From a virus: a stretch of DNA of 64,000 bases. The DNA lies in the IMG/VR virus record IMGVR_UViG_3300046170_000494, positions 114,984-178,983 of that record; one strand, 5' to 3'. Each line of letters begins with the position of its first letter. Position 1 is the first letter of the stretch. The translations under genes were made by a program, and so were the position numbers. Shown piece by piece: positions 16,024-37,034 of the stretch. The notes under the pieces were generated by a model. That model worked only from the letters and a program-made list of their open reading frames with translations. It did no database searches and had not been told where the DNA came from.

Positions 16024-19000
16024 TTAAATAGTTAAATCAGTTAACACTAAATTTTCCGGAGGTTCCGGTAAAGACATATCCGCTTGAGGCGGAATAGGTA
16101 GGGCAGGCATTTTAATTGATAAATTTTTATCCACAGAATCAAATTTTGAGTCATTATACTCCATACCATTCACTTCGAATTTTCTATCCTCAACTTCTTT
16201 CACAGAAAGAACTCTAAATAATTGAGACTCAAAAGATCTAAATAATCTATTTTGAATAGATTCTATATATTCTACACTCCCTTTATCGTTAATTGTCACA
16301 TCAAAAATTAAATATGCATTATGAGAATCAATTAGTTCGATTTCATCATTGCTAATAAAAATAATATTCCAAGTTTTATTAATTACATTATCATCTAAAT
16401 TAGAAGAGCTTGAGTCAAAATCTCTTATAGTAATTTTATTGTTTTTAAAAAAATCTAAACCGTGCCCTGATTCAAATTTTATTCTTAAAGCGTCCATGTT
16501 AGTAACATCATTATTTAACGATGAAACTTTTTCCCAATCACTTATAACTGCTGAATGATAAGCGGGATTTCTCTGTACATCTTGCAAAGTTAATTCTGCT
16601 TCCACCTCTGAGGGGGTTACTCCTAAAAATTGTTGAATCTGAGAACTACCCATATTTGCTTTAGATGTAATCCAAAAACCGGAAGAAGCAGCAGCGTGCA
16701 AAATTGAAAAATCTCCTCCATCAGGAATGCTATAAATATCATTTTTTGAATAGTTATGGTTCTCTTGAAATACAAAAAACATTAACGGAGAAAAATTAGA
16801 ACCTGTTTGTAAAAACTTTACATATATCCATTTTTGATCATTACTAGACCACCAGTATTGATTATATAAATTATTAGTGGTAGACACCCACCCAAATTCC
16901 GCAGACCAAAACCAAAAAAATTCATTATCATCATTTCTTGAATAATTCATTGATCCAACATAAATCCATCCTAACGAAGCAGAAAATATAAAACCATTAT
17001 CGCTTGGTATATTAACAGTTCCAAACATTAAAGATTCATACCAATTAGTTTCAATTTCTGAAGTGAAGATAAAATAGTTTTCTAAATCGTTTGGGTTATG
17101 AGTCGCTTGCTCTGTAATTTCTGATCCAAAAATTCCTTGTAAAGAGTATGATGCTCCAATTTCTATTTGATCAATATATCTTTGCGTAAAACTTTGGCTT
17201 TCTACAGCAAAGTAATGAAGTCCACCTGTATTAGAAAACTGGTCTCGTCCACGGTCTGAGATATTTATATGATCACCATTTAATGTCAAAGCTACTTGAA
17301 ATGTATGTAATCCAGCATTAACAACAAAATAAGAAGAAGATCCAACTCTAAGTTTATCTAGACCAGCGGGTAATAATCCAGAGGAAATGAATCTAACTCG
17401 ATCTCCGTTTTCTAAATTATGATTGTATGCCTTAATAACATTTTTATTTAAATCAACAGAAAAAGGAACTTTAACCATTAGATTAGATAAAATTGTTTTT
17501 TGTCCTTGAGGTCCAAATTTATTAATATTTTCATTAACTCCTATACTAGCCTGAAACTTAATAAATTGAGGTGTATTATAACTTTCAATTTCAGCATCTT
17601 GATCTTCGGAAGATTTATGTGAAGAAGCTCTTCCGTCTATGATTTTATCAGTCAGAAAAGGAAGTCCTACATTTACTGAAAACTCAACTTTATTTATGGA
17701 AACAAAGTCTTTTGCAGATTTATCTATCAAAATATATGGAGACTCACCTTCAAACGAAGATATATCCAAAACCCTACCACTCATATTCTTACCAGCTCTA
17801 TTTTCATCAGACACTTCGAAGATTGCGCCAGGATACAAATAAGAACCTTCTTCAGAGGTAGTAAAGCTTATTTTTTCATTTTCTAATTGAGACGAGTACA
17901 AAACCCATCTAGCTAATCTTCTAGCTTGAGTTTCAGAGGTTATTCCTAAACCCATAACCTCATTTTCTTGATATCCATAAACCCTCATAGCTGCAGAATC
18001 TTCTTCATATACTAAATCTGGCTTATAGTTTTTATTTTTATTATTAAACCGAACTAAACAAGATGTAAATTTTTTATTTTTATCCATACCAGAATACATA
18101 AATCCAGTCTCTCGATCTATATTTGAATTATTAAATAAAATAATTGGATCTTTTTGGCTGTCCTGTATAGTTAAAATTTTACCAAAATCATACCCAATAA
18201 TTCCTCTGAATACAGAAGCTAAATTGTTCATAACCGTCAAAGCCTCGCCTCTTTCGTGGAGATATGTGCTGCATGTAAACCGTGGTTCTATAACAGGATA
18301 GTTTTTTTGTAGGCAGGCAGCGCCTAACGTTCTTCTTTTTCCATTTATTGAAAAAGTCGAAGGTATTTCTTCTAGCGATGGGCCAAATACAGTAATACTT
18401 TTTTTTGCTGGATTAGACTCTTTTAAAACTCTTTCTTCGATAACTATTTCTCCTCTACGAACACATGAATTCTTTCTTACTAACTGCCTGGCATTAGTTT
18501 GTTGCATAGTTGATTCTGAAAAATTATGTTGATACATAAAAATAGCTACTTTAAGACCTTGAAATTCAACACCTTCACCAAAATCTTTCCTAAATTCGCC
18601 TTCAGAATAAGAGGTGTATTCAACATCACTACCATTAGAGTTATAAAAACCGTTTTGATGAAAGCTAATTTCAAAACTTCCCTCTTCTCCATCTCCTTCT
18701 TGATTAGATATATTGTTATTTGTAACACACGACCGAGGGGAAAAAGTTAATGTTTCGGGAGGGTGTCTAGTTTCAACCAGTTCGTCACAATATTTTGCGG
18801 CTTTATATAATTGCCATTTATCTATATTATATTCCTCTAAACCATATTTCCCCAATCCATATCTAGGATTTTGTACTAAATCATAAAATATCCAAGCAGG
18901 GTTGTCTGTCCAATATCTAAATTCGTCAGAAATATCATTAACAGAACTTCCATCAATAGTTTGACCTTTAAAAAATCCATTCCAAGGACCCTTATATTTC

Positions 19001-21542: not shown

Positions 21543-22615
21543 CCCTCAATTGGAAATCTTTCTGTGCCAGGAAAACCTCCAAACGGAAGAGAATTATTTT
21601 TTGATTTATTGTATTCTTGTAATTCTTTGCCAAACCTTAGTTGACAAGCATCTAAAGTCTTACGGCATTCGTCTTTTATCCAGTAATCGTTATCAATAAA
21701 AGGGTGATGCTCTTTAGCGATTTCGTGTGCTTGAACACATACAAAAACATTAGGGGTTGTCCTGTAAGGGTTATTAGAGCCTTTTCCTATAATTTTTACT
21801 ATATCTCCCAAGGAATAGCCATTTATATTTTGTGGGTTACCATTTTTGCCATATCGATTCCACTCGGGAATATCATTAAAACTCAAACTACTATCAATAC
21901 TTCCTCCCGCTCCTGCTTTATTTTTGTTTTTAGCAAAACCAGCTATTAAGCTAGTTTCGTCCGAAGCCTCTATAGGAAGTCCTTTGTACCCACAACCTAT
22001 ACTGCACCTATATTTCCAAGTACAATAAGCAGACAAAACAGTTCTTGCAGGAACAAATGCGTTTTCGAGTTCTAAAGCAGAAACTAATTCAAGTTCAATT
22101 AAGTTTTTAGCATCTAATATTTTTTTATTCACAAAAAATATATCATCAGGAAAATGAGCGTCAGCATCAGGAGAGCCAAAATGATTATCTCCGGCATCAT
22201 TGGTGTTTCTGTTGAGATAATTTTCTGCATCCAAAAATCTAGCATAAGTTCTTTTTCTTGAAATTTTACAATTAGCAAAATCCTTATTAGTTTTTAGTAT
22301 CAAAGAGAAAATGCCATCTGGATTAGCGATTTTAAGTCGAGGTCTAGGAAGCTTCCCGTCTCCGGTTTTTTCAAAACCATCTGTTTCTATAGGTAAAGGT
22401 TGATACGCTTTACCTTGCCAATAAATTGGATTAGCGCCATTAATCATACCGCAAAATCTATATATGGAACTGTCCCCAAAATTAATATCAGCAATATCAT
22501 TAAAATAAGCAACATTTTCTTGCATAATACTAAAATCTATCTCATATAGCTCTATAAGAGCATCAGGAGCTATAGAAAGCATTTGCTTTGATAGATTTGA
22601 TGTTGATTTACTCAT
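21539..22615 (-). CDS. Minor tail protein L-like (putative Fe-S cluster)
   Basis: LIELYEID, LPRPRLKIAN, RTYARFLDA, YCTWKYRCSIGCGY, DECRKTLDACQLRF and LPFGGFPG. Confidence 0.88.
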   Translation of the reverse strand: MSKSTSNLSKQMLSIAPDALIELYEIDFSIMQENVAYFNDIADINFGDSSIYRFCGMINGANPIYWQGKAYQPLPIETDGFEKTGDGKLPRPRLKIANPDGIFSLILKTNKDFANCKISRKRTYARFLDAENYLNRNTNDAGDNHFGSPDADAHFPDDIFFVNKKILDAKNLIELELVSALELENAFVPARTVLSAYCTWKYRCSIGCGYKGLPIEASDETSLIAGFAKNKNKAGAGGSIDSSLSFNDIPEWNRYGKNGNPQNINGYSLGDIVKIIGKGSNNPYRTTPNVFVCVQAHEIAKEHHPFIDNDYWIKDECRKTLDACQLRFGKELQEYNKSKNNSLPFGGFPGTERFPIEG

Positions 22616-25600
22616 TTACTTCTATATATATTTGAATTTGACCTTCTTGTGGACTTAGAAATGTATCACTGTTTATTATAACATTTTGAGAAAAATATCT
22701 ATTTTGTTTAGATAAAACAACCTTATCCGTTTCATAATCACTAGCCGAATGAACTTGATGATAATAATAATTAAATAAGTCAGCGTGGTATTTCACATAA
22801 GCTTCGTAATCATTTGATCCATTTACTGTAGGCATAAATCTACCTTCGCCATTTCCATTGTTTTGCCAATGATTTTCTCCCCATGAAGCCATGGAAGTTG
22901 CGCTTGATTTCAAAGTTCTTACTAAAATTTCATCATTATTTTGATCCACAAGGAAATCTTCTATATCTAAACTTGAAGGAAGGTAAACTACATAAAGATA
23001 ACCTCTTTGACCAGGCTTTAACTTATTTGTTTTTCTAATAGAAGTAAATATAGAAGATATAAAGTAACTAGATTCAGAATAGTTTGTGGATTGCCCAGCA
23101 GTAATTCTCTTTATATCTCCATTATTTCTTTGAAAATATTCATTCAATTCAACTCCATTTGCATCAACTTCTGTAAAATATTCGCCACCCTCAATCCCAT
23201 TATCATAACCCTCTAACCTTATTGTTTTACCGTTAAGGCCAAAAGGTAGGTTATGTGGAAAGGAAGCGTCGTATGAAGGAATTGGATATGTGTAATCTTC
23301 TTTAGATAATTCTTCTTCAACTATAATAGCCGGATTATTTGGCGCATTTCCTAAAATAGAAAAATTAACATCATTTGAATTTGTATCTAGCGATATTGAA
23401 CTTATATTTACGGTTTCTCCTCCAACATTCTCTAAAAACATTTTTTTCCTTAAAACTTTATTTGGGTTTATATTATCGTCGCCTAATTTAGATGCAAAAA
23501 TCAAAGGGTTAGTAAAGTGTAATTCACCCGGCCCAACAATTGGCTGTGTTGAAAAATTAGTTAATGTTTGCGCTTCAAAATTAAATGGATATTGCTCGAA
23601 AACTGCGGTTATATCATGATTATTTTTATATTTATAAGTATGATCCCAGGATTGGCATACAAAATTTTGCGGAGCTTCATATGGAGCTGGGGGAGAAAAT
23701 AAAAATGGAATATAACCTAAATGACTTTCTAAAAAATGAAGTATAGCATAAGCCTCTTCGTCGCTTCTATTATTAAATTTTAAATTTAATTTCAGTAAAC
23801 TTTCATTAATTCCATCGTTATAGATCTGAGTATACTTAGAACTTAAAGAAACTGTATTCAACCTAGGTTTTTGATTAACATTTAAACCTATAGAAGGTAG
23901 CCAAAAAAATTCTCTAGTCCAATACTCTTTATTAATATCAGCATATTCACCGCTAGCCCTAGTCCATTCAGAATTTTTTATTACTGGATCCTTGCCGGCG
24001 ACACCTGTTTGATTATACCAATAATAATATTGATTATTTATTTCTGAATATGCAATATCATTTTTTTGATAAGTTTCACTACTATCATAGCTAGGAGCTC
24101 TTTTAGTGAACAATGATTCTCCTTTGTTTAGAATAGAAGTATTTAAATTAGTTAAGCTAAGACTTATATTATTACTATCTTCAAAATTCAATGAATGATT
24201 AAAATTTCCGCAATAAAATGTTTTAGATTGATTACTTAAAGAATCATAAGGATGAAACGTTGAATTTCCATCCCACCTAAATCCAGAAATTCCTTGAGAA
24301 TATTTTAAATAACTTATATTTTTATCTTTTTCTAATTGACCAAGATGATTTTCTACAAAATGAATAATTGCATTAGCCTCTTTATTAGTTCTATTTGCAA
24401 ATTTTAAATTAGCTTGAAATTTCAAAGAGTTAGTTGAAACCGGAAACAATTTATAATAACCATTTCCATAATCCATTCTTCTATTTTTTGCTTGAAACTG
24501 AACATTAGATCCGTAATCCGCATCGAAGAAAAACCTATCGGTAACCCAACTATCACTACCATTAGGGTCTTCATTTATTGCGGTTAAAATAATTTCATGA
24601 GAGCCAGCTTCTTCAAAAGAATTAATAGTTATTTGATCAGTTAGACCTTGAACCTGAATTCTATCATATTTACCATCCCCTGCGCGGACAGTTTCATCAA
24701 GATTAGGAAGGCTTTTTGGAGACTGATTTTGAGTAGAGTCTGCGCGTATTTGATAATTCTTATCTATAATATAATATTTTTGATCATTATAATTATAAAA
24801 CGCTCCATGCACTGTTTTAACTTGTGGTAGTTTATAACAATATATCCAACTATCACTACCCAAAACGTCAAAGACCTCATCTTGTTCAAAATCGTCTTGC
24901 CCTAATATATAAAAAAAGCTACTTCCTCTCCTTCTATATTGGCCATTTTCAGGAATTGTATTATATTCATCCCTTGAAATCCTTAAGTTTTCCCACGAGT
25001 CAAGGAAATTATCTTGATCATCTCTCATATTCTCCCCGTTTTTGTCTTGAAACAATACTTCGGTTAAACCTGTAAGATCATGTAAATCACTCGCGCTTGA
25101 AACAGCATAAAAATAAGAACTGTCAATTTTTAAAAAACCATTAGATGCAGAGTTTTCGTTACCTATTGAACCTTTATCAGCAAGAATCCAAACTCCGTTA
25201 CCTTTTCCTATACTAGAATCGCTTCTACTATTATCCTGATTCTTCCAAAACCAAAATTTCTGTAGATAAACCCCATTTTCTTTAACAGGTATAATATATA
25301 TCCACCCCCAAAAATAATGACGAATCCACCCATTATTACTTTTAGACATAAAAAATTTACGATTATCAATCTCAGTACTTTCGTCTTTATTTGCAAGCAT
25401 AAACCAAGACGATCTATAACGACCTCTCCCAAGAGCATTAGCATCTAAAGTATCTCTAATTGTGCCATCTGAATTTATATCTAAATCGGTCGCAAAATTT
25501 TTATCAATATTTATAACATTATATAAACCTGAAGCGTCTTGAATCGATCCTTCTAGATTTATAGTTTGTCCTACTTTGATAGAATTGCCTAAAGCATCTG

Positions 25601-25889
25601 TCTTATTATGATCATCAAGTATATAATGCGAGGTTCGCCCATTTACAGTTGGCCCATCAGGGTCTAAAGAAAATCTATGAGAGCCAGATAAAATAGCTCC
25701 ACCACCATAGGACATATCTTCGGTAGCGTAATAAAATAACCCATCACCAGTATTATATACAAAATCAAATTTTTCATAAGAAGCTCCGGCTTGAAATATT
25801 CCCGAATAATTAGAAGTATGAGTTATTCTTTCATGAGAATACTTCGCAGTTGAACTTTGATTATATGATTCGGGAAAAGGTAGTGTCAT
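22608..25889 (-). CDS. Distal tail protein with two gpM-like domains and inserted accessory domains
   Basis: Two copies of the motif L.F.NR...EA.AI.HF.E.HLG; PFLFSPP..FVCQSW; located just before L. Confidence 0.7.
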   Translation of the reverse strand: MTLPFPESYNQSSTAKYSHERITHTSNYSGIFQAGASYEKFDFVYNTGDGLFYYATEDMSYGGGAILSGSHRFSLDPDGPTVNGRTSHYILDDHNKTDALGNSIKVGQTINLEGSIQDASGLYNVINIDKNFATDLDINSDGTIRDTLDANALGRGRYRSSWFMLANKDESTEIDNRKFFMSKSNNGWIRHYFWGWIYIIPVKENGVYLQKFWFWKNQDNSRSDSSIGKGNGVWILADKGSIGNENSASNGFLKIDSSYFYAVSSASDLHDLTGLTEVLFQDKNGENMRDDQDNFLDSWENLRISRDEYNTIPENGQYRRRGSSFFYILGQDDFEQDEVFDVLGSDSWIYCYKLPQVKTVHGAFYNYNDQKYYIIDKNYQIRADSTQNQSPKSLPNLDETVRAGDGKYDRIQVQGLTDQITINSFEEAGSHEIILTAINEDPNGSDSWVTDRFFFDADYGSNVQFQAKNRRMDYGNGYYKLFPVSTNSLKFQANLKFANRTNKEANAIIHFVENHLGQLEKDKNISYLKYSQGISGFRWDGNSTFHPYDSLSNQSKTFYCGNFNHSLNFEDSNNISLSLTNLNTSILNKGESLFTKRAPSYDSSETYQKNDIAYSEINNQYYYWYNQTGVAGKDPVIKNSEWTRASGEYADINKEYWTREFFWLPSIGLNVNQKPRLNTVSLSSKYTQIYNDGINESLLKLNLKFNNRSDEEAYAILHFLESHLGYIPFLFSPPAPYEAPQNFVCQSWDHTYKYKNNHDITAVFEQYPFNFEAQTLTNFSTQPIVGPGELHFTNPLIFASKLGDDNINPNKVLRKKMFLENVGGETVNISSISLDTNSNDVNFSILGNAPNNPAIIVEEELSKEDYTYPIPSYDASFPHNLPFGLNGKTIRLEGYDNGIEGGEYFTEVDANGVELNEYFQRNNGDIKRITAGQSTNYSESSYFISSIFTSIRKTNKLKPGQRGYLYVVYLPSSLDIEDFLVDQNNDEILVRTLKSSATSMASWGENHWQNNGNGEGRFMPTVNGSNDYEAYVKYHADLFNYYYHQVHSASDYETDKVVLSKQNRYFSQNVIINSDTFLSPQEGQIQIYIEVNE

Positions 25890-26809
25890 TTAATTACCTC
25901 CTTGATAGTCATAGATCCTTTTGCATAACTACCTTCTGAAACTTGTAGCGATTGAGTATGTATCTTACCAGATGTCGAAAATTTTGCAACTTGCTCTCCA
26001 GTTAGTCCATATAAATAAGCAGTGATTGTCGAATTATTCAACCCAAAAGGGGTTGAACCATTTTGTTGATCGCCATAAGGATTAAGGTTAGGAATAAGTT
26101 CGTTAGATTCAATATTCATTTCGCTAGTGATATTTTCTGCGGTAATTCTATATGGAGTTGCTCCCTCTGATCTCGTGTTTACAGAAGTATGTTCGTTATC
26201 TCGAATATGGCTATGAACTTTTCTTGTCACATTTATATTATATTTTAGATTACTAATCTCAAATTGCCTTCCTATTGCGCTTGCTGCGCTAGCCCCACTT
26301 ATTTTAACATTACCAAATGATTGTAATCCGTGAGCAAAATCTACAACAGGTTGAGAAAATCTATCTATAGCTTCTTCATATCTTTTAATTGTTCCATATA
26401 TATCATAAACTGCAGTAGCTATTAAATTTTTAAATGGAGCCAAAGTAAAACTAAAGCTTTTTAAAAACATGCCATCAAATTTATACCTTCCAACAATATT
26501 ATCATCAATAGGATTGTCTGACATACCAGCTTTAATTTCGAACATTTTTTCTATTGAATTAGGATTCTTATTAATTAAGAAAGTTTCAGCAGATATATAA
26601 AAATTTATTTCTAATTGCCCTTGAAGCATTCCAACCGGATAAAATTCAACAAATTGAGTTGGCGCACCGCATATACTAAGATCTGTTCTGCCGTAAACTT
26701 TTTCTTCAGTAAGTTTTGGAGAAATAGATAAATTTGCACTATTAGCCATAATATTCTTGCCGCCTATTTGAATACGGCTATTTTCAAATCTTAAAAATGG
26801 ATCACTCAT
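25886..26809 (-). CDS. Tail tube-fold/baseplate protein
   Basis: Pattern similarity to the 39034 tube family (FLKSFSFTL; ISNLKYNINVTRK); lies between TMP and M. Confidence 0.45.
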   Translation of the reverse strand: MSDPFLRFENSRIQIGGKNIMANSANLSISPKLTEEKVYGRTDLSICGAPTQFVEFYPVGMLQGQLEINFYISAETFLINKNPNSIEKMFEIKAGMSDNPIDDNIVGRYKFDGMFLKSFSFTLAPFKNLIATAVYDIYGTIKRYEEAIDRFSQPVVDFAHGLQSFGNVKISGASAASAIGRQFEISNLKYNINVTRKVHSHIRDNEHTSVNTRSEGATPYRITAENITSEMNIESNELIPNLNPYGDQQNGSTPFGLNNSTITAYLYGLTGEQVAKFSTSGKIHTQSLQVSEGSYAKGSMTIKEVIK

Positions 26810-27935
26810 CTCCGTCTATAGAATTATGTAAAGTATCATAACCTTTATAAGTTAAAGAAATAGACATTTCTCCTTCGATAGAAGAGTTAATTGATTCTCC
26901 TATTAATCGAACATTATGACCCGTATACGCATTAATCATTTCCTTAGTTTGTCCATCTCGAATTTCTATTGAAACTGTACTTTTCGGCGCAGATTGAATT
27001 CTATCTTTTATTTCTCTAATTTCATATTCATTAGCGATCATAGTAAAATTTATATCTGTTTCAATTGGGTATTGAGTGTCAACCTGAACAGGCTGAAGGT
27101 TAGGTACTGAAGGTTTTGATCCGGCAACCCAATCCTCTTCCGTTCCTCTAGGTAGTCCATATACTGGGGTTAAATTCAGTGTTCTTGTGAAAGAAAAATC
27201 ACTAATAGCATCAATACTGAAATCGCTAACCGTAACCCTCATGCTTGCTTGATCAGTAAATTGAGTTGGTGGGTGATTATACTGAACTATATCATCATAT
27301 GAACGTTCAATCTTAAACGCTTCCTGACCTAATCGAAGTATTATGCCTCCATCTATTATATCAGTAGGGTGTAGACTATTATATTCTTCTTCGGTTAATT
27401 CAATCGATTGATTATTATAGGCATAACTAATATTTTCACCAACTGTATTTCCATCTGAATCGGTTAGAAATACTGAAGATGCATTCCAAGGATAATTTGT
27501 ATGATTTTGATCTACAAGAGCGGTAAAGCTTTTTAACACATCTTTGCCAAGTTCGCCGTATACTGTAAAATCAGTTTGTATTTCAGGTAATTGTCCAACC
27601 GTACAAGATACTGAATATCTATTTAATCTTGCCTGAGTAAAGCCGAAACCTTTAGTTTTGTTACTGTATAAAATTACCCCACTAATTTCGTCTTCATCAA
27701 ATTTATACTTTCCTATAGAGTCGGTTTCTAGCATTGGATCTGCGCTGACCATTGTTCTATTTATAGAAAAGTTTCCTTGTAAAGGAGAATCAATTAAAGC
27801 ATCAATAAAACCAACACCAGCTACTCTAACAGGTTTCTCTGCTATACCGTAACTACCATCAACAGACTGAACGCCAGATAATGCGTATCCATTAAGAACA
27901 ATAGTTTGTTCATAATTGGAATAACTACTACTCAT
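26802..27935 (-). CDS. Tail tube-fold protein (paralogue)
   Basis: LSGVQSVDGSY, RLNRYSVSCTVGQLP and ISDFSFTRTLNLTPVYGL align by eye with the 39034 and 40379 proteins. Confidence 0.55.
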   Translation of the reverse strand: MSSSYSNYEQTIVLNGYALSGVQSVDGSYGIAEKPVRVAGVGFIDALIDSPLQGNFSINRTMVSADPMLETDSIGKYKFDEDEISGVILYSNKTKGFGFTQARLNRYSVSCTVGQLPEIQTDFTVYGELGKDVLKSFTALVDQNHTNYPWNASSVFLTDSDGNTVGENISYAYNNQSIELTEEEYNSLHPTDIIDGGIILRLGQEAFKIERSYDDIVQYNHPPTQFTDQASMRVTVSDFSIDAISDFSFTRTLNLTPVYGLPRGTEEDWVAGSKPSVPNLQPVQVDTQYPIETDINFTMIANEYEIREIKDRIQSAPKSTVSIEIRDGQTKEMINAYTGHNVRLIGESINSSIEGEMSISLTYKGYDTLHNSIDGDE

Positions 27936-30900
27936 TAACTTAATAGACCCCCAGGCCTTTGTTCTTCGACTATAATACTTAAAACTTGCTGCTTCACTCT
28001 TTCTGACAACAACTTCATTTTATCCCCTCCTTCTTGAGCGGGAGCTCCTCCATCTTGCTTTTTTTCTTCAGACCCTTTAGCTGTATTTATGGAAATATTA
28101 ATATTGTTAGTGTTGCCCCCAGCAGAAGTTCCTTTGCTTTCTGACATTGGAGAAGTTTCTCCACCATCATAAAATTTTCCTGCGTTTATTTTATCCAACA
28201 TCGGCTTGCCTAGCTGGCGAGCACTACTTGCTTTAATAACGTATTCTCCTTCACTGAGCATTGCAGGAATTTGGTCGATACCAGATTTGCCAGAGATGTG
28301 TCCTCCGCTGGCGTATTTATTTATTTTTCCCCCAAAATATGGCATTTTTACCATTAAAGCTTCTTTAAGAGATAAATTTTGACTAACAAAAGGGTTTGCT
28401 AGATCTGCATCAGTTATATCTAGAGAGCTCATTTGAGTACCTGAACCTCCCTCGGTCACAGGAACTATATTTGCTCCTCCTCCTTGATCTCCAGATAAAG
28501 GAGTTGAATCTGCTCCTCCCCCTCCAAAATTTATATTTTTTAATCCATAAGTTAGCCCCGCACTTATTACGGTTGATAAAAGAGCTTGTCTTCTAGCTTT
28601 CTTTTTCGCTTTTTTTGCGGCGGCTTCCTGAGCTCGCCTTCTGTCTTCTGCTAAAAGACCTTGCATTTCATCGACATCAGCTTTAAGCCCAACGCTTTTG
28701 GCTTGCCCGCTATAGAAAAAGCCCGACATTTTTCTGTATTGATGAGCTCGACTACTTAATCTTTCTCTAGCTCCTGCAGCTCGAGCAGAGCCAGGAACTC
28801 CTCCTCCTTCAGCAAACTTAAGTACGCTACCTCCATTGTATTTTCCTTGTGTTCCACCAAATCCACTAAAAATAGAGCCGAGCATTTTAAATGGAGCAGA
28901 TATAACACTAAATAATCCACCAAATAAATTATCAAAAAATCCCGGTTGTGCTGCGCTTTTATTTATATCTTTTCCAGATTTAAGGGCAGCTAATACATCT
29001 CCATGAGGAGCTTTTCCTGCAAAATTCCCTCCAGGACTTTTAATTCCAGGGATTTTTTTCATATCTTTTTTAAAGCTAGCCATTTTTTTGACGTCCACAC
29101 TTGGCTGAGACGGAGCCTTTGGGCCAGAACCAAAAAACGAAGCTAAATCTTGTTTTTTAGTTATTGCAGAAGATGCGCGGGCTTTTTCATATTCTTGCTG
29201 ATACAATCGCATATTCTTTTCGTTATTAAAGAATTTGCGCATTCTTTGTCTCATTGATGGTCTTGAAATTTTACTATATTCTGGTTGTGGAGCAAAAGCG
29301 TCAGCAAGACCCATAGTTCCACCTGCTGGTTGTCCGAAAGCTTCGGCGAGACCCATGGTTCCTCCTCCGCTAGAAAATTTTGGAGTTTTGCCTCTAGCAT
29401 TTAAACTATGCATAAAGTTTGAGCCGTATTTATTTACAGCTCTTCTACTCATTACATATTCTCCATTAGTGACCATTGCAGGAACGCCACCGCCTTTAGA
29501 GTATTTTCTCACATTACCCCCTTGCGATAAACCCATTGCTCCGACGACTTGATTTGCGGCACTTTGAAGAAAAGCATTTCTTAAAGCCGATAAAAATCCC
29601 ATAGCCACTCCTTGAAGTGCATCTCCTAAATCTTTACTTTTATCTAAAGCTGCATCCATGGCGGTCACAAGTCCATCACGAAAATGGGTTGCGGTTATTG
29701 TTCCTAATTGGTAATCTATGGTTTCTGCGTCTTCAAGCATTTTTTTTCCTGCATCCTTAAATGCATTACCGAAAGCTCCTGGTCCAGTCTTATGAGCCCT
29801 TGCGGCAGCAACTCGCTCTTTTTCTATTTCCAGAAGAGTCTTAGATGAAGAGATTTCTTTTTCTGTTTCTTCTTTTAGTATTTTTTTCTTTTGAGCTATC
29901 TCTTCTAACTTCTTGATTCTTTCATCTTTGTCTTTCAGTAAAGCTTGGTAGTCTTCTATTTCTGACTTAGTCATATCTAACTTAGAACCATAGACTCCCC
30001 CTCCCTGATAAGTTTTTTCGTGAGCTGCTATTTTTTTCTTGTATTCTAAAAACTTTTTTTGCTCAAAAGCTTCCGGACTAGTATTTAGCTTTGCCATTTC
30101 ATTTTCTTCGTTTTCTTTAAGTCGTTTTATTTTTTCTTCTAAAGCAAATTCTTTTTCTCTTATAGCAAAAACTTCTCGCTCCTTTTGAGTTTTATATCCC
30201 GGACCGGCGGCTAGAGCTCTTTGAGCTGCGTCAACCTTATTATCAAATCCCCGTATTTTTTGGGTTGATTGCAGAGATCTAGAGTTCATTTCATTAATTC
30301 TCTGCATGTCAGTAAGTGTTTGCTTTCTATTTGAAAGTATTAAATTAACGTTTTTCTCTGCGTCCGCTAAATCTTTGGCGGTATCTCGAGTTTTTTGAGC
30401 CACTTCTAAATTGTTAATTCTTTTTTGTAGTTCTGTTTCAAGAATTTTTACGACAATTGCCTCCGTGCCCCCCTTCTGAAGTCTTTTCATTTTATCTAAG
30501 ATCTCTTGAAGGCTCATCGCGCTTACTCTATCAGTTAGATCTTGATCTTCCATCTCTTCATTTCCTAAAGAAATTTTAAAAGCTGAAGATAGAGATGGGC
30601 TATCTTTTATTTTTTGAAGTAATCCTGTTTTTGTTTGGGCGTCGATTTGTGCTGTAGCTTTTTTGTAAGCCTCAGTAGCTTTATTGATCGCTTCGGTATG
30701 CTTATACATAGTTTTTTGTCTTTCTGTAATAGAGCTACCTATTATTTTTTGCTCAAGCTTTAAAGCTTGGTTTTGCTTTGCATAACTTGCTTGTATTTCT
30801 AACTGTTCGATTGTAGCAGCTTGCTGAGCAGCAAGCATAGCTTTCTGAAAGTTCAGGGCAAGGATGACACCATCTTTAAGTTTATTATTTGCATCATTTA

Positions 30901-33900
30901 TTTTTTCTTGTTCAAGATTATAAGATTCCATACCATTTAGCATTTCTACTCTTAACGATTCTAGGGCAATTTGTTGGTTTTCTGTTTTTGGATCTAATAT
31001 GCCTTGCTCTCGAAGCATTTTCTCATATTGAGCGCCAGTCATGGCCTTTTTTTCTTTCGAGAATTTTATTCCATCTTCGCCGACATTTTCAATTTGCGTA
31101 AACAACTGTTTACCTTCAAGCCGTTTTAAGTATTTACTAATTATGTCCCCTTGACTTTGAGATTTTTCTGTAAACTCCCGTCTCATGTAAGTTGTTCGTT
31201 GTTTAGAGCTATCTCCATAAATATAACTTTCAAGAGGTCTACCATTAGGTCCGTACTCAAATTTTGGTAGCTTTTTACGCATACTTTCCATTTCAGATGA
31301 TGACATTTGAGACATCGTCTCTCCTATAAATTCTGGGGGTAAAGCTTGAGCTATTTGTTTGCCGACTTCGGACGCACGTTGTTTCTCTGCATCCCTAGCT
31401 TCGTTAATAGAGGACACTAAGCCAGAAAAAGCTCCAACTGTTGCTCCTACTGCTGTCCCTAAAGCTCCAAACATCATGCCCATAGAGGCGCCCATACCTG
31501 CCCCAGATAATGTTCCTCCTATCGCTTTACCTGTAGTTCCACCAATAGAGTCTTCTAAAAACCCTGCGGCCATAGGAAGCCCCATCATTAAACCCATCTG
31601 TCCACCCGTGCTGCCAAGAGCTCGACCCATGGTTGTATTAGAAAATCTTTCGTTTGCGTTTCTTAATCCTAGAGATCTAGTAGTCCTACCTCTTGCGTTA
31701 TTGAGTCTATCAATAGTGGAAATACTTTTTCTTAATCTTTGATTAACTTCTTGTTGAGCACTGCTTCCGAGGTGATAATTACTAGCTATTTTTTGCGCAG
31801 ATCTATTTAATTGATCTAGAGTTCTATTGCCTTGTTTATAAGAATCAATTCTTTTCTTGAGGTGAGCGTTCGCCTGTTTGGCTAAATCATTTGCTTTCTC
31901 TTGCTCTATAGATCCAAAATCTCCAGGCTTAAATATTGCGTAATTTGGAACATACCCTTTTGCTCCAAATACATCTTTTAATCCGTTTGGTTCGTCACGA
32001 GTATTAGTTACTCCAAGACCAATTGGATTGCCTTTATTCATTAGAGCTGGATGCGTTCCTACCCTGATTTGAGAAACAGGAACTCCTGCATCTCGTTCTC
32101 TTCCTATTGCATCAGATAATGGGTTTGCGAAATTAGGAATAAAACCATCAGCGCGACCTGATATATAATTTAATATTTTTTTAGGAATACCTCCAGACTT
32201 AGCGGATGCGAGAGTGTATTTTAGTTCTAAAGCGCGCTTCGTAGGGTTATTTTTATCATTCAAGAATTTTGATAACTCCGATGCGTCAGCTCCTCTAAAA
32301 TCAAAAGAAGCTTGTTTATTATCTTCAATCCTATCTCCAATTGCAGTTCTTAGTGAAGTTTCATATAAGTTCCCTAAAGTTCCGGGATCGATATGTTTAA
32401 CAATATTTTCGCTAGTAAAATCTGGTTTTTGACCTTTACTTGAACCTTTAAATATATTTTTATGCAATCTTTCTGCGAACCCCCTCAGAGGGTCTTTAAC
32501 CAAATCTCCTATTGTTTTTCGAGCCACACTATCAGACTGACCCTTCCGGATTAAGTTTAAATCTTGCTCTGAAACAGGTGAGATAGCTTTAGTTGGCAAT
32601 GTGCCTAATAATGTTTTCCCTTTTAAATCTTTTACGTTAACTCCAATTTGTTGAGCCAAAGTTTTTTTGGAGTCAGGATTTACTTCTGAAATCGGCGTAC
32701 TATATCGAATGTCTATAGGACTTTCTGTTTCTGCGCCAACGCCCAGAATAACTCCTAATTGACTAATTGCTCCAGGATATATTTGATTTAAATCTATTAC
32801 TGGATTCTTAAACCCCTTTTCTTTCTTGAAAGCTTTTCCACCAAGTTTCCCTCCAGCCGCTTTATTAAAAGCGCTCATATTTACTTTGTTTCTTGCTAAG
32901 CTTTTATACTTTCCCTCCATTTCCTTCTCAGAAAAGCCTATTGAATTAAAATTAGGTATATATCCCCCTGCGGCATAAGGATCAAACCCATGCACAGAAC
33001 CAAACGCTTGCTGATAATTTTTGCCTGCCTTACTAGATAAAGGAGGCATTATTGCTGGTTGACTTAATCCTGAGAATGTTTTAACTTTTTCTGCGCTATT
33101 ATAAATAACAGATCCTTCGCCAGGCATATTCATTGATCGAATACTTCCTGCGGCATATCCACCACGAGCAGCCTGTTCTCTTTCTGGGTTCGCAAAATTT
33201 GGTATATGACCGTAAGCACGGCCTCTGCGAGGTGTTAGGTTTGCTCCAAAGCCTTTTGAGTATAATGTAGCTGCACTGCTTTTAGCGACAGAGTCGAGCA
33301 TTTTTGCTTCAGCTACTTGAGCTCTTAAAAGTCCAAGAATTATTTTTTCTTTTTCTGTTCGAGAAATGTCCGTGCGCAACATTTCTTTGCTTAATTCAGA
33401 ACTTCTTCCAAACAGTCCTACAAGAGATGTTTGAATTACTTTTTGTTTCTGAGCTTCGCTAGTTACTCCAATTAATGAAGTTAAACTTTCTTTAGCGAAG
33501 CTTGCCGCTTTTAAGAATAACTTTCCAAATACAGCAGTGATAACAACTAAACCCGGACCGCTAATTACATTGCCTAAGCCCCTTAGGAATCCATTTGCAA
33601 ATTTACTTCCAGTTCCCTCTCCATCCCCTAAAAGTCCAGACAAACCTTCTGCTCCACTTTTAACTATATTTAAAACTTTTTCAATTCCGGGAGCAAGCAT
33701 TATCTCTCCGATTTGAGCAGATACCTGTTTAATTGCCAACCCAGTTTCGGTTGCCATTGCGGCCATGGTATTCCTTAATTGTTCATTTTTCTCTATAGCT
33801 TCGTTTGTTGCTCCTGCAGAAATTTGAGTAGCGTTTGCAAGAATACCATTTTGTTTAGCGGCATCACCAAGAACAGCTTTTAAAACGTTGATTTGAAAAA

Positions 33901-34834
33901 CGCCACCGACTGTCTGAGCTATTTGCGCTTTTTGGGCTTCGGATAATGAATCAAAAGTGTTTGCGAGATCAGTTAATATTTTCTTTGCTCCAAGAGTCTT
34001 ACCTTCGATATCTCTAACAGCAATTCCTAAATTCTCTAGTTGATTTAAAGTATCAGTTCTTCCGATACGAGTAAAAATAGTTTTAAAGGAGTTACCAATA
34101 ACCTTACCGCCTCGAGCTGTTTGTTGCTGAGCGGCAGTGACTAAGCCAATTAACTCATCAATATTGACTCCAGCTCCTTTAGCTGCTGCACCAGTTCTAG
34201 ATATAGCGTCAGCAAAATCTTCTGCGCTAACCGCAAACTTAACATCAACTGCGGCGAATTTACTTACTAATTGAGTAGTATCCTTGATTTGATTACCATA
34301 GGTATTCATTGCGGCAGTTAATGACTTTACTGCCTCCGCAGAATCCATACCTGTTAATCGAGTAAGAATAAGAGCGTCTTTTGTTCTTTTTAAAGATTCT
34401 TCTACATTAAGGCCTTGACGAGCATACTCTGTCGCAGCGTCAGCTGCAACCTTAAATGCTGCACCAGTTTCTTTAGCTACTTTAAATAAACCATCACTAA
34501 ACGCTTCAAGCTTTTGAGTGCTCAGGCCCATAACAACATTAATATCCGCCAAAGATTTTTCAACTTCAACCATATTGCGAACCATTCCTTTAAATGCGTC
34601 CGCCATACCGTTGATTATTGCCATCGAAGCGCCGAAAGCTATAATACGAGCATTCGCGGCTTCCATAGACTTACTGAATTCATCAGCAGCCCGCTTCATA
34701 TTACCTAAAGGTTGGGTCGCGCCCTTATCGTCAACACTTATTCTAATAGGTTGACGCCGAATTCTGTTTACAGCAGACTGAACCGCTGCCTCAAGAGGTT
34801 GTGTATTACCGTGTACGTCAAGATTTATAGCCAT
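27935..34834 (-). CDS. Tape measure protein (TP901-like core), 2299 aa
   Basis: Ala/Gly/Lys-rich helical protein; AATEYARQG...AVSAEDFADAISRTG core; C-terminal F/YxxGG and AMLSEGEYVI motifs; directly upstream of the tail tip genes. Confidence 0.92.
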   Translation of the reverse strand: MAINLDVHGNTQPLEAAVQSAVNRIRRQPIRISVDDKGATQPLGNMKRAADEFSKSMEAANARIIAFGASMAIINGMADAFKGMVRNMVEVEKSLADINVVMGLSTQKLEAFSDGLFKVAKETGAAFKVAADAATEYARQGLNVEESLKRTKDALILTRLTGMDSAEAVKSLTAAMNTYGNQIKDTTQLVSKFAAVDVKFAVSAEDFADAISRTGAAAKGAGVNIDELIGLVTAAQQQTARGGKVIGNSFKTIFTRIGRTDTLNQLENLGIAVRDIEGKTLGAKKILTDLANTFDSLSEAQKAQIAQTVGGVFQINVLKAVLGDAAKQNGILANATQISAGATNEAIEKNEQLRNTMAAMATETGLAIKQVSAQIGEIMLAPGIEKVLNIVKSGAEGLSGLLGDGEGTGSKFANGFLRGLGNVISGPGLVVITAVFGKLFLKAASFAKESLTSLIGVTSEAQKQKVIQTSLVGLFGRSSELSKEMLRTDISRTEKEKIILGLLRAQVAEAKMLDSVAKSSAATLYSKGFGANLTPRRGRAYGHIPNFANPEREQAARGGYAAGSIRSMNMPGEGSVIYNSAEKVKTFSGLSQPAIMPPLSSKAGKNYQQAFGSVHGFDPYAAGGYIPNFNSIGFSEKEMEGKYKSLARNKVNMSAFNKAAGGKLGGKAFKKEKGFKNPVIDLNQIYPGAISQLGVILGVGAETESPIDIRYSTPISEVNPDSKKTLAQQIGVNVKDLKGKTLLGTLPTKAISPVSEQDLNLIRKGQSDSVARKTIGDLVKDPLRGFAERLHKNIFKGSSKGQKPDFTSENIVKHIDPGTLGNLYETSLRTAIGDRIEDNKQASFDFRGADASELSKFLNDKNNPTKRALELKYTLASAKSGGIPKKILNYISGRADGFIPNFANPLSDAIGRERDAGVPVSQIRVGTHPALMNKGNPIGLGVTNTRDEPNGLKDVFGAKGYVPNYAIFKPGDFGSIEQEKANDLAKQANAHLKKRIDSYKQGNRTLDQLNRSAQKIASNYHLGSSAQQEVNQRLRKSISTIDRLNNARGRTTRSLGLRNANERFSNTTMGRALGSTGGQMGLMMGLPMAAGFLEDSIGGTTGKAIGGTLSGAGMGASMGMMFGALGTAVGATVGAFSGLVSSINEARDAEKQRASEVGKQIAQALPPEFIGETMSQMSSSEMESMRKKLPKFEYGPNGRPLESYIYGDSSKQRTTYMRREFTEKSQSQGDIISKYLKRLEGKQLFTQIENVGEDGIKFSKEKKAMTGAQYEKMLREQGILDPKTENQQIALESLRVEMLNGMESYNLEQEKINDANNKLKDGVILALNFQKAMLAAQQAATIEQLEIQASYAKQNQALKLEQKIIGSSITERQKTMYKHTEAINKATEAYKKATAQIDAQTKTGLLQKIKDSPSLSSAFKISLGNEEMEDQDLTDRVSAMSLQEILDKMKRLQKGGTEAIVVKILETELQKRINNLEVAQKTRDTAKDLADAEKNVNLILSNRKQTLTDMQRINEMNSRSLQSTQKIRGFDNKVDAAQRALAAGPGYKTQKEREVFAIREKEFALEEKIKRLKENEENEMAKLNTSPEAFEQKKFLEYKKKIAAHEKTYQGGGVYGSKLDMTKSEIEDYQALLKDKDERIKKLEEIAQKKKILKEETEKEISSSKTLLEIEKERVAAARAHKTGPGAFGNAFKDAGKKMLEDAETIDYQLGTITATHFRDGLVTAMDAALDKSKDLGDALQGVAMGFLSALRNAFLQSAANQVVGAMGLSQGGNVRKYSKGGGVPAMVTNGEYVMSRRAVNKYGSNFMHSLNARGKTPKFSSGGGTMGLAEAFGQPAGGTMGLADAFAPQPEYSKISRPSMRQRMRKFFNNEKNMRLYQQEYEKARASSAITKKQDLASFFGSGPKAPSQPSVDVKKMASFKKDMKKIPGIKSPGGNFAGKAPHGDVLAALKSGKDINKSAAQPGFFDNLFGGLFSVISAPFKMLGSIFSGFGGTQGKYNGGSVLKFAEGGGVPGSARAAGARERLSSRAHQYRKMSGFFYSGQAKSVGLKADVDEMQGLLAEDRRRAQEAAAKKAKKKARRQALLSTVISAGLTYGLKNINFGGGGADSTPLSGDQGGGANIVPVTEGGSGTQMSSLDITDADLANPFVSQNLSLKEALMVKMPYFGGKINKYASGGHISGKSGIDQIPAMLSEGEYVIKASSARQLGKPMLDKINAGKFYDGGETSPMSESKGTSAGGNTNNINISINTAKGSEEKKQDGGAPAQEGGDKMKLLSERVKQQVLSIIVEEQRPGGLLS
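29291..29365 (-). repeat. 42-bp-period tandem duplication within the TMP (GGTMGLA[ED]AF x2)
   Basis: Copies at about 29333-29365 and 29291-29323. Confidence 0.75.
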
Positions 34835-34874: not shown

Positions 34875-35861
34875 TTATTCTACTCCATGCAATTTCATTA
34901 AATCTTGCATATTTAAAGTTCCGCCTTTTTTCTTCGCTTCGTCATGCAGACTAACTCCGCCTTTAGGTTTTTCAATACCAAGATACTCATAATCTTCATC
35001 TTTAGCTCCAACAAGCGTTCCTGCGGCGCCTTGAGAGAGTTTATCTTTTGCCTTATCTCTTTCTTCTTTTGAACTACTGCCAAACTCTAACAATTTAGCA
35101 GGATCTTTTCTTATGCTTTCTGGTATATTTTCATTACTATCAAATATATTTTTAAATACTCTAGTATAAACAATTAATCTTATTTGATTATATGTTAATG
35201 CACAAAATGGTTTTCCATAAAACTGCATACTATCTTCTGCAAAACTTAAATATGGATTATAAAATTCTTCTAATATAGTATATTGTATATTTTCTTCAGT
35301 AAAGCCCTCAAATATTTGATTATAATTAAATATATATTTTTTAATATCATGATCTTCTAATTCATCATAAACTTTTTCACTAAATAATACTTCATTTAAA
35401 TCCTTGTCTTTGTAAAAACTTTTAATCATATAAAAATCATTCATACGATCTTTTGCATATTTTTCACAAGTATTACCAATAAGAGATATTTTATGATTTT
35501 GTTTTTCTAATAAAATTTTCTGCTCTTGATCTATAAGCTCAGACTGTTTATCAATAGCGCTTTTAAGTACCATTTTATTTCGCGCTTTCTTTAAGCTATC
35601 AATAAAAATAGTTTTTTCTTCAATAAATTTATCTTCCGCTTCACTCCATTCTCCTTCTTTCATTAAGAAGTCAAGCATATCTTTTTCTGTTGGAACTCCG
35701 CGTTTTTGCGCTATTTTGAAATACTTATCTTCTACCTCTTCAAGTTCTACTTGATCGTGAGGTGTTAGGTGCTTAATATATACAAATTCTTCTTCGATTA
35801 TAGCCGTAGAGTATCCACGAACTATATCTCTAAATATTTTTCTGCGCGCTACAGTTTCCAC
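34875..35861 (-). CDS. Putative tail assembly chaperone (GT-like position)
   Basis: Helical charged protein immediately before the TMP; N-terminal part aligns by eye with the upstream ORF; GTG start. Confidence 0.55.
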   Translation of the reverse strand: METVARRKIFRDIVRGYSTAIIEEEFVYIKHLTPHDQVELEEVEDKYFKIAQKRGVPTEKDMLDFLMKEGEWSEAEDKFIEEKTIFIDSLKKARNKMVLKSAIDKQSELIDQEQKILLEKQNHKISLIGNTCEKYAKDRMNDFYMIKSFYKDKDLNEVLFSEKVYDELEDHDIKKYIFNYNQIFEGFTEENIQYTILEEFYNPYLSFAEDSMQFYGKPFCALTYNQIRLIVYTRVFKNIFDSNENIPESIRKDPAKLLEFGSSSKEERDKAKDKLSQGAAGTLVGAKDEDYEYLGIEKPKGGVSLHDEAKKKGGTLNMQDLMKLHGVE

Positions 35862-35866
35862 GCATA

Positions 35867-36688
35867 TTAAACTCTACCTTCTTCGATGTCTTCGTCTAGT
35901 TTAGCGAAATCAGCTGTCGATACTGCGCCAGAGCTATAATACCAGAAGCTAAATAATGCAGCAACTTTGCCTCCGACGATGTCATAAAGTTCATCACCTT
36001 CTTCTTCAAGTTCATAATATCTTTCTAGTTTTTGATCGAAGTCATTTCCTTCAAATAATGGAATAAGATCATCACTATCTTCTTTTTGAGTATAAGTCAG
36101 ATGAAGAATATACCACTGAATAACTTTATTTTCCGCGCGAACATCTGCAGTGTGATTAAATAAATTAGAATATGAAGTTTCTACATCAACAATATTTTTT
36201 CTAAGTTCAGTAATCTCAGCGGAAATGTCATCCAACTTCTTTTGGTCTTCGTTAGAGATATTGCTTTTAATTCTGATCCTTTCGCTTTCTTGAGATAATT
36301 CGCCGTAACGGATGTACATTTTTGTTAGAGCTTTTGCATCTTCTTCAGGAAGCAGTCCTCCTGTATCGCTATACTTTTTCGCTAACATGGCTTTAGTAAG
36401 AATTCCTTTTTTAACACACTTACTCATCTCAACACTAAATTCTAATTCCGCATCTTCGATTTGCCTACGAGTTGGTTGTTTCATAACAAGCCTATAAGGC
36501 ACAGCTTCTTCAACCTCTTTTGTCATGGAGACTTCTTCTTCTTCTCCAGTCTCTTCATTTTTAATTTTTTTCTTTTGAGTTTGCTTAACCTTTTCTTTCT
36601 TCTCAAAAGTAAAACTATAAATTTCACGTAATTTTTTACGAGTATCGTTCATAGTTGGTGTCTTTTCTAGTGTTTCCGTAGTTGCCAT
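35867..36688 (-). CDS. Putative tail assembly chaperone (G-like position)
   Basis: Acidic helical protein two genes before the TMP. Confidence 0.5.
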   Translation of the reverse strand: MATTETLEKTPTMNDTRKKLREIYSFTFEKKEKVKQTQKKKIKNEETGEEEEVSMTKEVEEAVPYRLVMKQPTRRQIEDAELEFSVEMSKCVKKGILTKAMLAKKYSDTGGLLPEEDAKALTKMYIRYGELSQESERIRIKSNISNEDQKKLDDISAEITELRKNIVDVETSYSNLFNHTADVRAENKVIQWYILHLTYTQKEDSDDLIPLFEGNDFDQKLERYYELEEEGDELYDIVGGKVAALFSFWYYSSGAVSTADFAKLDEDIEEGRV

Positions 36689-36695
36689 AATATTT

Positions 36696-36983
36696 TTATT
36701 TAAATGTAAATCCTATAGTATAATTATCTAATTCTGTTTCGATATTTCTAATAGTTTCGTTACCAATATCTAAAGTTCTTTTTCTTAAGTATTGCAACTT
36801 TTCTTCATCGAAGTAATTAGCTTGATCGATAATAGGGCTACAGCCTTCAGGTAGATTCTTTTTTAATTTGTCGAAATGAATCTGATGCTCATTATGTAAA
36901 TCCTCAAGCATAACGAGGAAACCCTTAAAAAGGGAAACCGTATTCCTTTGATAGGACTTTCTGAAAATACCTTCTGCGTCCAT
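36696..36983 (-). CDS. Hypothetical protein (tail module)
   Basis: ORF track; ATG 36983 (MDAEG) chosen because a GTGTA motif lies upstream. Confidence 0.55.
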   Translation of the reverse strand: MDAEGIFRKSYQRNTVSLFKGFLVMLEDLHNEHQIHFDKLKKNLPEGCSPIIDQANYFDEEKLQYLRKRTLDIGNETIRNIETELDNYTIGFTFK

Positions 36984-37006
36984 AAACCTTGTACCTACAA
37001 AGGTAA

Positions 37007-37034
37007 TACACAAAAAATATAGTTTAGTGTAAAG
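37007..37034. promoter_or_regulatory. Back-to-back GTGTA motifs (candidate divergent late promoters)
   Basis: GTGTATTA on minus (37011 downward) and GTGTAAAG on plus (37027), at the divergence point. Confidence 0.55.

Follow-up and report, generated by a model that had tools for sequence, protein, structure and literature searches.

A tape measure protein family of marine and freshwater phages with an exchangeable module between conserved bookends and repeated fence peptides

Why is a stretch of a tail tape measure protein (TMP) partitioned by four near-copies of one short peptide, and could the module in its middle be an enzyme? The question is raised by the window analysed here, a stretch of 64,000 nucleotides from the IMG/VR virus record IMGVR_UViG_3300046170_000494 (positions 114,984 to 178,983), in which a 6.9-kb open reading frame (ORF; P0001) encodes a protein of 2299 amino acids (aa). 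An earlier note, made from the letters of this DNA, had described the repeated linker, proposed that it separates swappable enzymatic cargo, and read one of the modules as a PD-(D/E)XK nuclease. The protein itself is a TP901-type tail tape measure protein of a lambda-type siphophage. It carries PF10145 (PhageMin_Tail; E 1.6e-28, 100.4 bits against a cut-off of 33.2), every strong PHROG match is to a tape measure family, and tip genes of the lambda type, namely M-, L- and K-like genes and a fusion of I and J, lie downstream of it on the same strand. The coordinates of all features are collected in Table 1.

We examined how often the linker core, [IV]PN[FY], occurs and how likely this would be by chance. 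It is found in the TMP at aa 544, 626, 899 and 962, where the earlier note had placed its four copies, compared with a mean of 0.02 and a maximum of two copies in 20,000 shuffles of the protein. The motif is absent from all other ORFs of at least 80 aa in the six frames of the window. Among 254 collected relatives, 1152 instances were counted against 35 expected from composition, with the consensus [AS]-x-G-[FYLH]-[IV]-P-N-[FY]-[AS]. Aligned columns show the P-N pair to be invariant or conserved to at least 90%. When the relatives' proteins were split at the motifs and the pieces were clustered, three near-universal modules emerged: A, which follows motif 1, B, and Z, which precedes the last motif. 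The four peptides thus fence a three-module insert in the N-terminal third of the TMP, which A and Z open and close.

This architecture belongs to a large family. A word-indexed search gave 920 long relatives, and an exhaustive HMMER search of 1.8 billion representatives gave 953 with E values up to 0.001; the latter are representative clusters at 50% identity, so that the family is at least of that size. The listed HMMER matches of at least 1500 aa are TMP-sized (1504-5354 aa), and the shorter ones look like fragments. Full-length relatives hold from 0 to 13 copies of the strict motif, most often four, and the relative of 5354 aa holds more than 20 copies of a looser form. Marine, estuarine and lake metagenomes, together with IMG/VR, are the sources of the relatives, and two matches are labelled as metagenome-assembled genomes of Flavobacteriaceae and Crocinitomicaceae; partly on the basis of these two labels, the hosts of the family are probably Flavobacteriia. 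A tblastn search with the insert against 50,697 GenBank phages gave no match.

The three modules are conserved to very different degrees. Hidden Markov models (HMMs) of the modules, run on 322 full-length relatives, found A in 318, Z in 318 and B in 163. The median identity to the window TMP is 86% for A (119 relatives) and 81% for Z, compared with 28.5% for B, and BLASTP directly recovers only 32 of 120 B modules. Module A has 26 invariant columns among 57 sequences, and the core of module Z, V-T-N-T-x-D-E-P-N-G-L, is invariant and is kept in distant freshwater relatives too; the conservation of these two bookends exceeds that of every other part of the TMP. Between B and Z, the relatives carry extra cassettes that fall into upwards of 120 additional clusters, of which 91 have a single member, and the number of cassettes ranges from 2 to more than 12. 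Common descent of these parts was considered and rejected, as profile comparison by hhalign shows no relation between A and Z and none of the extra cassettes to A, B or Z. The one relation that this method shows among the cassette clusters is between clusters 3 and 10. A Pfam search with modules A, B and Z and with the whole insert gave no match.

Recombination exchanges what lies in the slot between A and Z, and the junctions coincide with the fence peptides. The TMPs P0021, P0023 and P0025 are 95-100% identical to the window TMP over aa 1-600 and 921-960 and 10-40% identical across B, and P0012 has 95-100% identity in the region after motif 4, yet carries a different B. At the DNA level, the relatives L008-L010 are 86-100% identical to the window up to about aa 610. 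Directly past motif 2 the identity falls from about 90% to 13-30%, it lies at 13-50% (the random level) over aa 631-891, and it is back at 96-100% at aa 901, within motif 3. A further drop after aa 961-971, at motif 4, is seen in L008-L010 and in L046, and L001 maintains 90-100% past motif 4. Because identity falls and returns at motifs 2, 3 and 4, in protein as well as in DNA, the junctions are located there. The linkers therefore do act as module boundaries, as the earlier note had supposed: near-identical TMPs differ in what lies between the motifs, with the breakpoints at the motifs, and the inter-repeat content is not identical among the homologues collected. The slot of close relatives holds divergent alleles of the module B family rather than different domains. 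Unrelated cassettes, some with a recognisable enzyme, are added to the array in more distant relatives.

We then asked at which level the motif is maintained. The synonymous codons at its G, P, N and F/Y positions show the same usage as elsewhere in the gene, and a DNA-level recombination signal, which we had considered as a candidate, is ruled out by this background level of synonymous variation. Since synonymous codon use is at background, the motif is maintained as a peptide and not as a DNA recombination site. The idea that the linkers serve as recombination sites is accordingly borne out as to where the breakpoints lie, but not as to any signal in the DNA. In the model, the fence peptide borders the folded domain, and at motif 2, at least, the chain there is predicted with low confidence. 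The role of the peptide is probably to keep the modules autonomous, so that chimeras joined there would remain functional, and it may also serve as a processing or docking site.

Module B is the part for which an enzymatic function has been proposed. An AlphaFold (AF2) model from a trimmed alignment of 60 sequences reached a predicted local distance difference test score (pLDDT) of 84.9 and a predicted template modelling score (pTM) of 0.76; a first model, from 30 sequences, had reached a pLDDT of 70 and found no structural match. In the better model, the first ~45 residues are Lys-rich and of low confidence and form a lead-in that includes motif 2, and the body is alpha/beta and comprises three long strands, a helix of 29 residues and a C-terminal part. 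We aligned 183 distinct B sequences with hmmalign and counted residues over the ungapped copies. The alleles of B have diverged to about 20-30% identity, and six residues stay invariant (Table 1). GNLYE, FDF and ELK, which the earlier note had picked out, do follow one another in this order within the final third of the module that motifs 2 and 3 enclose, and the residues singled out (E825, D845 and E870-x-K872) are the invariant ones, over 176-177 ungapped copies. That these positions stay fixed, whereas identity elsewhere is about 20%, points to an active site or a binding site. The invariant G-x3-E, h-D-h (where h is a hydrophobic residue), (D/E)-x-K and final K of B would make up the pattern expected of an active site, and a phosphodiester would be a reasonable guess for its substrate.

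The fold of B gives no such lead. A Pfam search with 60 B homologues, at E values up to 10, found no recurrent family, HMM searches of the PDB sequences with three alignments returned only noise (E 0.25 or worse), and a search of the ESM Atlas by features had a best score of 0.75, to an unnamed cluster. As modelled, module B is an orphan alpha/beta domain of no recognised family or fold. In one relative, L073:47-1081 (MDSX01048521.1, at a contig end), the first 51 residues of the piece in slot 2 align with the C-terminal portion of the GFO_IDH_MocA Rossmann domain (35.8 bits against a cut-off of 24); a fusion and an assembly chimera are indistinguishable here, as the ORF is cut by the contig end.

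Recognisable enzyme domains are found in other family members, with SNase lying in the slots. In 29 giant relatives, Pfam detected SNase (PF00565), ART-PolyVal (PF18760; one relative), DUF7178, PGDYG and a weak GNAT match besides PF10145. An HMM built from five genomic SNase domains found SNase in 29 of the 322 full-length TMPs; a simple SNase regular expression had no match. The domain lies wholly within one inter-motif slot in all 29 carriers. It starts 31-45 residues past the left motif in 22 of them, and the remaining 7 have more than 250 residues between it and the closest motif on the left. Slots bearing SNase begin anywhere from aa 615 to aa 2160 and fall in the related cassette clusters 3 and 10. 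Pfam confirms SNase above its cut-off in P0166 (aa 898-995, slot 637-1058) and in P0229 (aa 912-1010, slot 881-1073), and precomputed annotations list it in about a dozen further relatives. Kinship between B and SNase was also considered; hhalign shows no similarity. No TMP carries both B (163 of 322) and SNase (29 of 322), where about 15 would be expected to. This exclusivity is only suggestive, because the SNase carriers form a more distant clade, in which the first slot after A holds another, unrelated module. Precomputed Pfam annotations also place PF07022, which we take to be a CI-repressor-type helix-turn-helix family, beside PF10145 in P0266 and P0334 (~4240 aa), together with SNase in P0266.

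Is B, then, a true but highly derived PD-(D/E)XK nuclease that is injected with the TMP? Its invariant residues come in the order of that superfamily, with a helix E, h-D-h, (D/E)-x-K on a strand and a further basic residue. Position 870 shows the diagnostic alternation of D and E (73 and 104), and relatives that lack B hold another nuclease, SNase, within the same array. The spacing from D845 to (D/E)xK, about 25 aa, falls among the values seen in type II enzymes, EcoRI for example. The predicted structure leans the other way. The search by structure that the earlier note had called for gave no restriction-endonuclease-like match: the best Foldseek hit of the B model (pLDDT 85) against the PDB had an E value of 0.48, VIA-align against 48,161 PDB representatives gave a best Z of 3.5 (root-mean-square deviation 4.0 A over 56 residues) and none at Z of at least 5, and a second look by VIA and a search of BFVD had no match either, although sequential structural aligners of this kind would miss a circular permutation. 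Nor did Pfam and PDB sequence searches with 60 B members find a match. Two PD-(D/E)XK families, UPF0102/YraN and Mrr_cat, were compared as profiles built from Bacteroidia genomes; hhalign gave B a probability of 0.2% with the former and 0.4% with the latter, against 18% (E 0.0013, 63 columns) for the positive control, UPF0102 versus Mrr_cat. The canonical core is alpha-beta-beta-beta-alpha-beta, in which D begins beta2 and (D/E)xK lies on beta3, the two strands forming a hairpin. In the B model, however, D226 (D845) is followed by a strand of only two residues (227-228), and a helix (229-239) lies between it and the strand with E251-x-K253 (E870-x-K872). Thus, compared with UPF0102/YraN, Mrr_cat and Hjc, B matches the order and chemistry of the invariant residues but has no detectable profile or structural similarity, and a beta-alpha-beta arrangement is predicted around the motifs instead of the hairpin. 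The nuclease call is unproven, because these comparisons found no structural or profile match and the predicted local topology differs; its motif order and invariance stand, and we regard a derived PD-(D/E)XK enzyme as unlikely.

What would such an insert, housed in a tail tube of roughly 4 nm, do? Virion-borne enzyme cargo in a motif-fenced, recombining slot is the account that we prefer, and from the sequences we give it about an even chance. Under it, module B would most probably be a virion-carried enzyme that acts on the host as soon as infection begins, since TMPs leave the tail ahead of the DNA; A and Z would serve the platform (assembly, register or processing) rather than be cargo. 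TMPs are trimeric, fill the tube and exit ahead of the DNA (PMC10038345; PMC11661146). The T5 TMP forms a trimer inside the tube and is expelled, a cut after R1127 separates its hydrophobic stretch from a muralytic domain (PMC10038345), and the N-terminal part of the TMP of the Thermus phage P23-45 is an active virion RNA polymerase (PMC10770324). Several observations weigh against the cargo account. The case for B as an enzyme is built on its invariant charged residues, as no known fold or family was found for it, most of the extra cassettes in relatives hold no recognisable enzyme, the exclusivity of B and SNase may be a clade effect only, and cargo does not explain the extreme conservation of A and Z. 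That conservation would fit an assembly contact, as A and Z are the most conserved parts of the TMP and always bracket the array, and A, B and Z could instead all be structural parts of the tail-assembly and channel machinery (tube, chaperone or neck contacts, trimer register), with B varying because host defences target the TMP. The defence system SNIPE does bind TMPs (bioRxiv 10.1101/2025.11.03.685801), other segments of the TMP are mosaic as well, and B is without a known enzyme fold. A surface that is purely structural and exposed to immune pressure would nevertheless not usually keep six residues of acid/base type invariant in a module otherwise at about 20% identity, in relatives SNase lies in this array and ART-PolyVal probably does, and a cassette number of 2 to more than 12 is hard to fit with a fixed assembly contact; a purely structural insert thus seems to us rather improbable. 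The fence peptides might also be cleavage sites, for a tail-maturation protease or for self-cleavage at the conserved Asn, at which A, B and Z would be released as separate proteins, either within the virion or once ejected. They lie at module edges, are selected as protein and have the nearly invariant P-N pair; maturation cleavage is established for the TMPs of T5 (after R1127) and lambda (gpH; PMC10038345), and the TMP of 80alpha is often found fragmented (PMC11661146). The T5 site, which we read from AY543070 at R1127 as S-F-V-P-R/A-E-G-G (the slash marks the cut), shares an aromatic-V-P core with G-F-V-P-N-F-A, but a likeness of three residues is too short for evidence, and the A-E-G-G that follows the cut resembles a different class of motif, in the C-terminal third of the window TMP. 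Moreover, the Pfam scan found no peptidase domain in the TMP, and a cut between aa 547 and 965 would need to follow the setting of tail length. We are therefore doubtful of cleavage at the fence, and we think it less likely still that the fence is a dedicated processing signal (with cleavage possibly at Asn), that a large, hitherto undescribed family of aquatic phage TMPs consists of recombining effector polyproteins, and that B is the first member of a new phosphodiesterase or nuclease fold, functionally interchangeable with SNase and released into the host before the DNA.

Table 1. Features of the tape measure protein gene and its surroundings (positions in the 64,000-nucleotide window; aa, residues of the TMP unless stated otherwise)
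Feature	Position	Strand	Basis or count
Tape measure protein gene (P0001)	27935..34834	-	PF10145, tape measure PHROGs, lambda-type tip genes downstream
PhageMin_Tail (PF10145) domain, aa 120-311	33902..34477	-	Pfam
Motif 1, G-H-I-P-N-F, aa 542-547	33194..33211	-	motif scan
Module A, first bookend, ~78 aa (aa 548-623)	32966..33193	-	identity, HMM in relatives
Motif 2, G-Y-I-P-N-F, aa 624-629, recombination breakpoint	32948..32965	-	motif scan, DNA identity
Module B, exchangeable middle, 267 aa (aa 630-896)	32147..32947	-	identity, AF2 model
GNLYE in B (G821-x3-E825), predicted helix, model residues 198-212	32360..32374	-	G and E in 176/176
FDF in B (F-D845-F), D flanked by hydrophobic residues	32297..32305	-	D in 176/176
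ELK in B (E870-L-K872), predicted strand, model residues 249-253	32219..32227	-	position 870: E 104, D 73 of 177; K 177/177
K886, last helix of B	32177..32179	-	171/172
Motif 3, G-F-I-P-N-F, aa 897-902, recombination breakpoint	32129..32146	-	motif scan, DNA identity
Module Z, last bookend, 57 aa (aa 903-959)	31958..32128	-	identity, HMM in relatives
Motif 4, G-Y-V-P-N-Y, aa 960-965, third breakpoint in several relatives	31940..31957	-	motif scan, DNA identity
Hydrophobic stretch, aa 1099-1141	31412..31540	-	weak Gly-zipper match (E 0.055)
Helical middle of the TMP, aa 961-1720	~29675..31954	-	
[FY]-[AS]-x-G-G motif regions, ~aa 1778-1841, 2007-2020, 2164-2220	29312..29503, 28775..28816, 28175..28345	-	sequence scan
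Three ORFs directly upstream of the TMP gene	34875..37013	-	
Two ORFs between the TMP and M-like genes	25886..27935	-	
M-like minor tail protein gene	22608..25889	-	phrog_14 (aa 658-782 of the product)
I and J fusion gene	16024..21210	-	phrog_32 (aa 1-217 of the product), phrog_31
ORF after the J-like gene	8427..16019	-	

The remainder of the TMP and the neighbouring genes have features of their own. Directly downstream of the cassette insert is a hydrophobic stretch rich in Gly, Ala and Met, which is probably a membrane-inserting segment by analogy with the hydrophobic stretch of T5 pb2. On the whole TMP, a Pfam search at E values up to 1 found only PF10145 and the weak Gly-zipper match in this stretch, with no peptidase and no MPTase. 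Mosaicism extends beyond the insert to the helical middle: relatives with 95-100% identity over the first 600 aa have 15-50% here, and the 95-100% identity of P0021 and P0025 extends to the last ~580 aa of the TMP as well. The C-terminal third holds three [FY]-[AS]-x-G-G motifs, K-Y-S-K-G-G-G-V-P, K-F-A-E-G-G-G-V-P (aa 2006-2014) and K-Y-A-S-G-G-H-I, two of which are followed by P-A-M-[VL]-[TS]-x-G-E-Y-V. This class resembles the T5 pb2 sequence directly past the cut (R/A-E-G-G-M-M-Y-P), and two of the motif regions match PHROGs 10030 and 13338. The region upstream of a TMP gene is the expected place of the tube and chaperone genes; the three ORFs found there (328, 273 and 105 aa) are without a PHROG match, and the same holds for the pair of 377 and 307 aa that separates the TMP gene from the M-like gene. 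At 1093 aa, the M-like minor tail protein is longer than usual, and phrog_14 covers only a short part of it. The gpI-like and gpJ-like (central fibre) parts are joined in a single polypeptide of 1728 aa, and the ORF that follows encodes 2530 aa without any PHROG match.

To our knowledge, TMPs are usually treated as passive rulers or channel formers, and only a few are known with an enzyme. The family described here equips the ruler of a large group of uncultured marine and freshwater phages with a defined insertion platform, and nucleases can be recognised among its modules. Should these be delivered, long-tailed phages would have a general and evolvable route for injecting ready-made enzymes, and the platform would be a natural scaffold with which to load phage tails with cargo. 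Module B, which is abundant and well conserved and has an active-site-like signature without a known fold, is a clear target for structural and biochemical work. A literature search turned up no paper that describes the fence motif or the bookends.

How does this arrangement compare with known systems? An embedded enzymatic domain in a TMP (putatively so for B) and a hydrophobic or Gly-rich stretch are common to the window TMP and to T5 pb2 (pb2* and pb2C; Linares et al. 2023, PMC10038345), and T5-like [FY]-[AS]-x-G-G motifs are present in the C-terminal third of the former. However, T5 pb2 carries a single muralytic metallopeptidase, at its C terminus, and is cut at a single site, whereas the window TMP has inserts in its N-terminal third, a repeated fence, exchange, and a domain of no known family. 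P23-45 gp96 resembles it in location, with an enzyme in the N-terminal part of a giant TMP that is active in the host after ejection (PMC10770324), so that cytoplasmic enzymes borne by a TMP do exist, but this is a single large, identifiable enzyme, without a repeated fence or cassette exchange. Polyvalent proteins (Iyer et al. 2017, PMC5512222) are giant, are delivered together with the DNA and string together varied effector domains, and one relative here has an ART-PolyVal domain. They combine several effector domains; the window TMP has one candidate enzyme module (B), and its relatives have SNase or ART-PolyVal. The processing of polyvalent proteins is also attributed to an MPTase peptidase domain of their own, for which the window TMP has no Pfam match; the G-aromatic-[IV]-P-N-[FY] fence is not part of their description, and the paper on them mentions tape measure proteins not once (PMC5512222). 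In the Sle1-type TMP-related effectors of actinobacterial contractile injection systems, a TMP-derived carrier holds a functional domain that varies between relatives and is experimentally swappable; they are, however, cargo of a bacterial injection system and not a phage ruler, and the abstract reports no fence motif (PMC13277306). TMPs with embedded enzymes and polyvalent virion proteins are thus known kinds, and what is new here is a platform that combines bookends kept across the family, a fence peptide in several copies and cassettes open to exchange.

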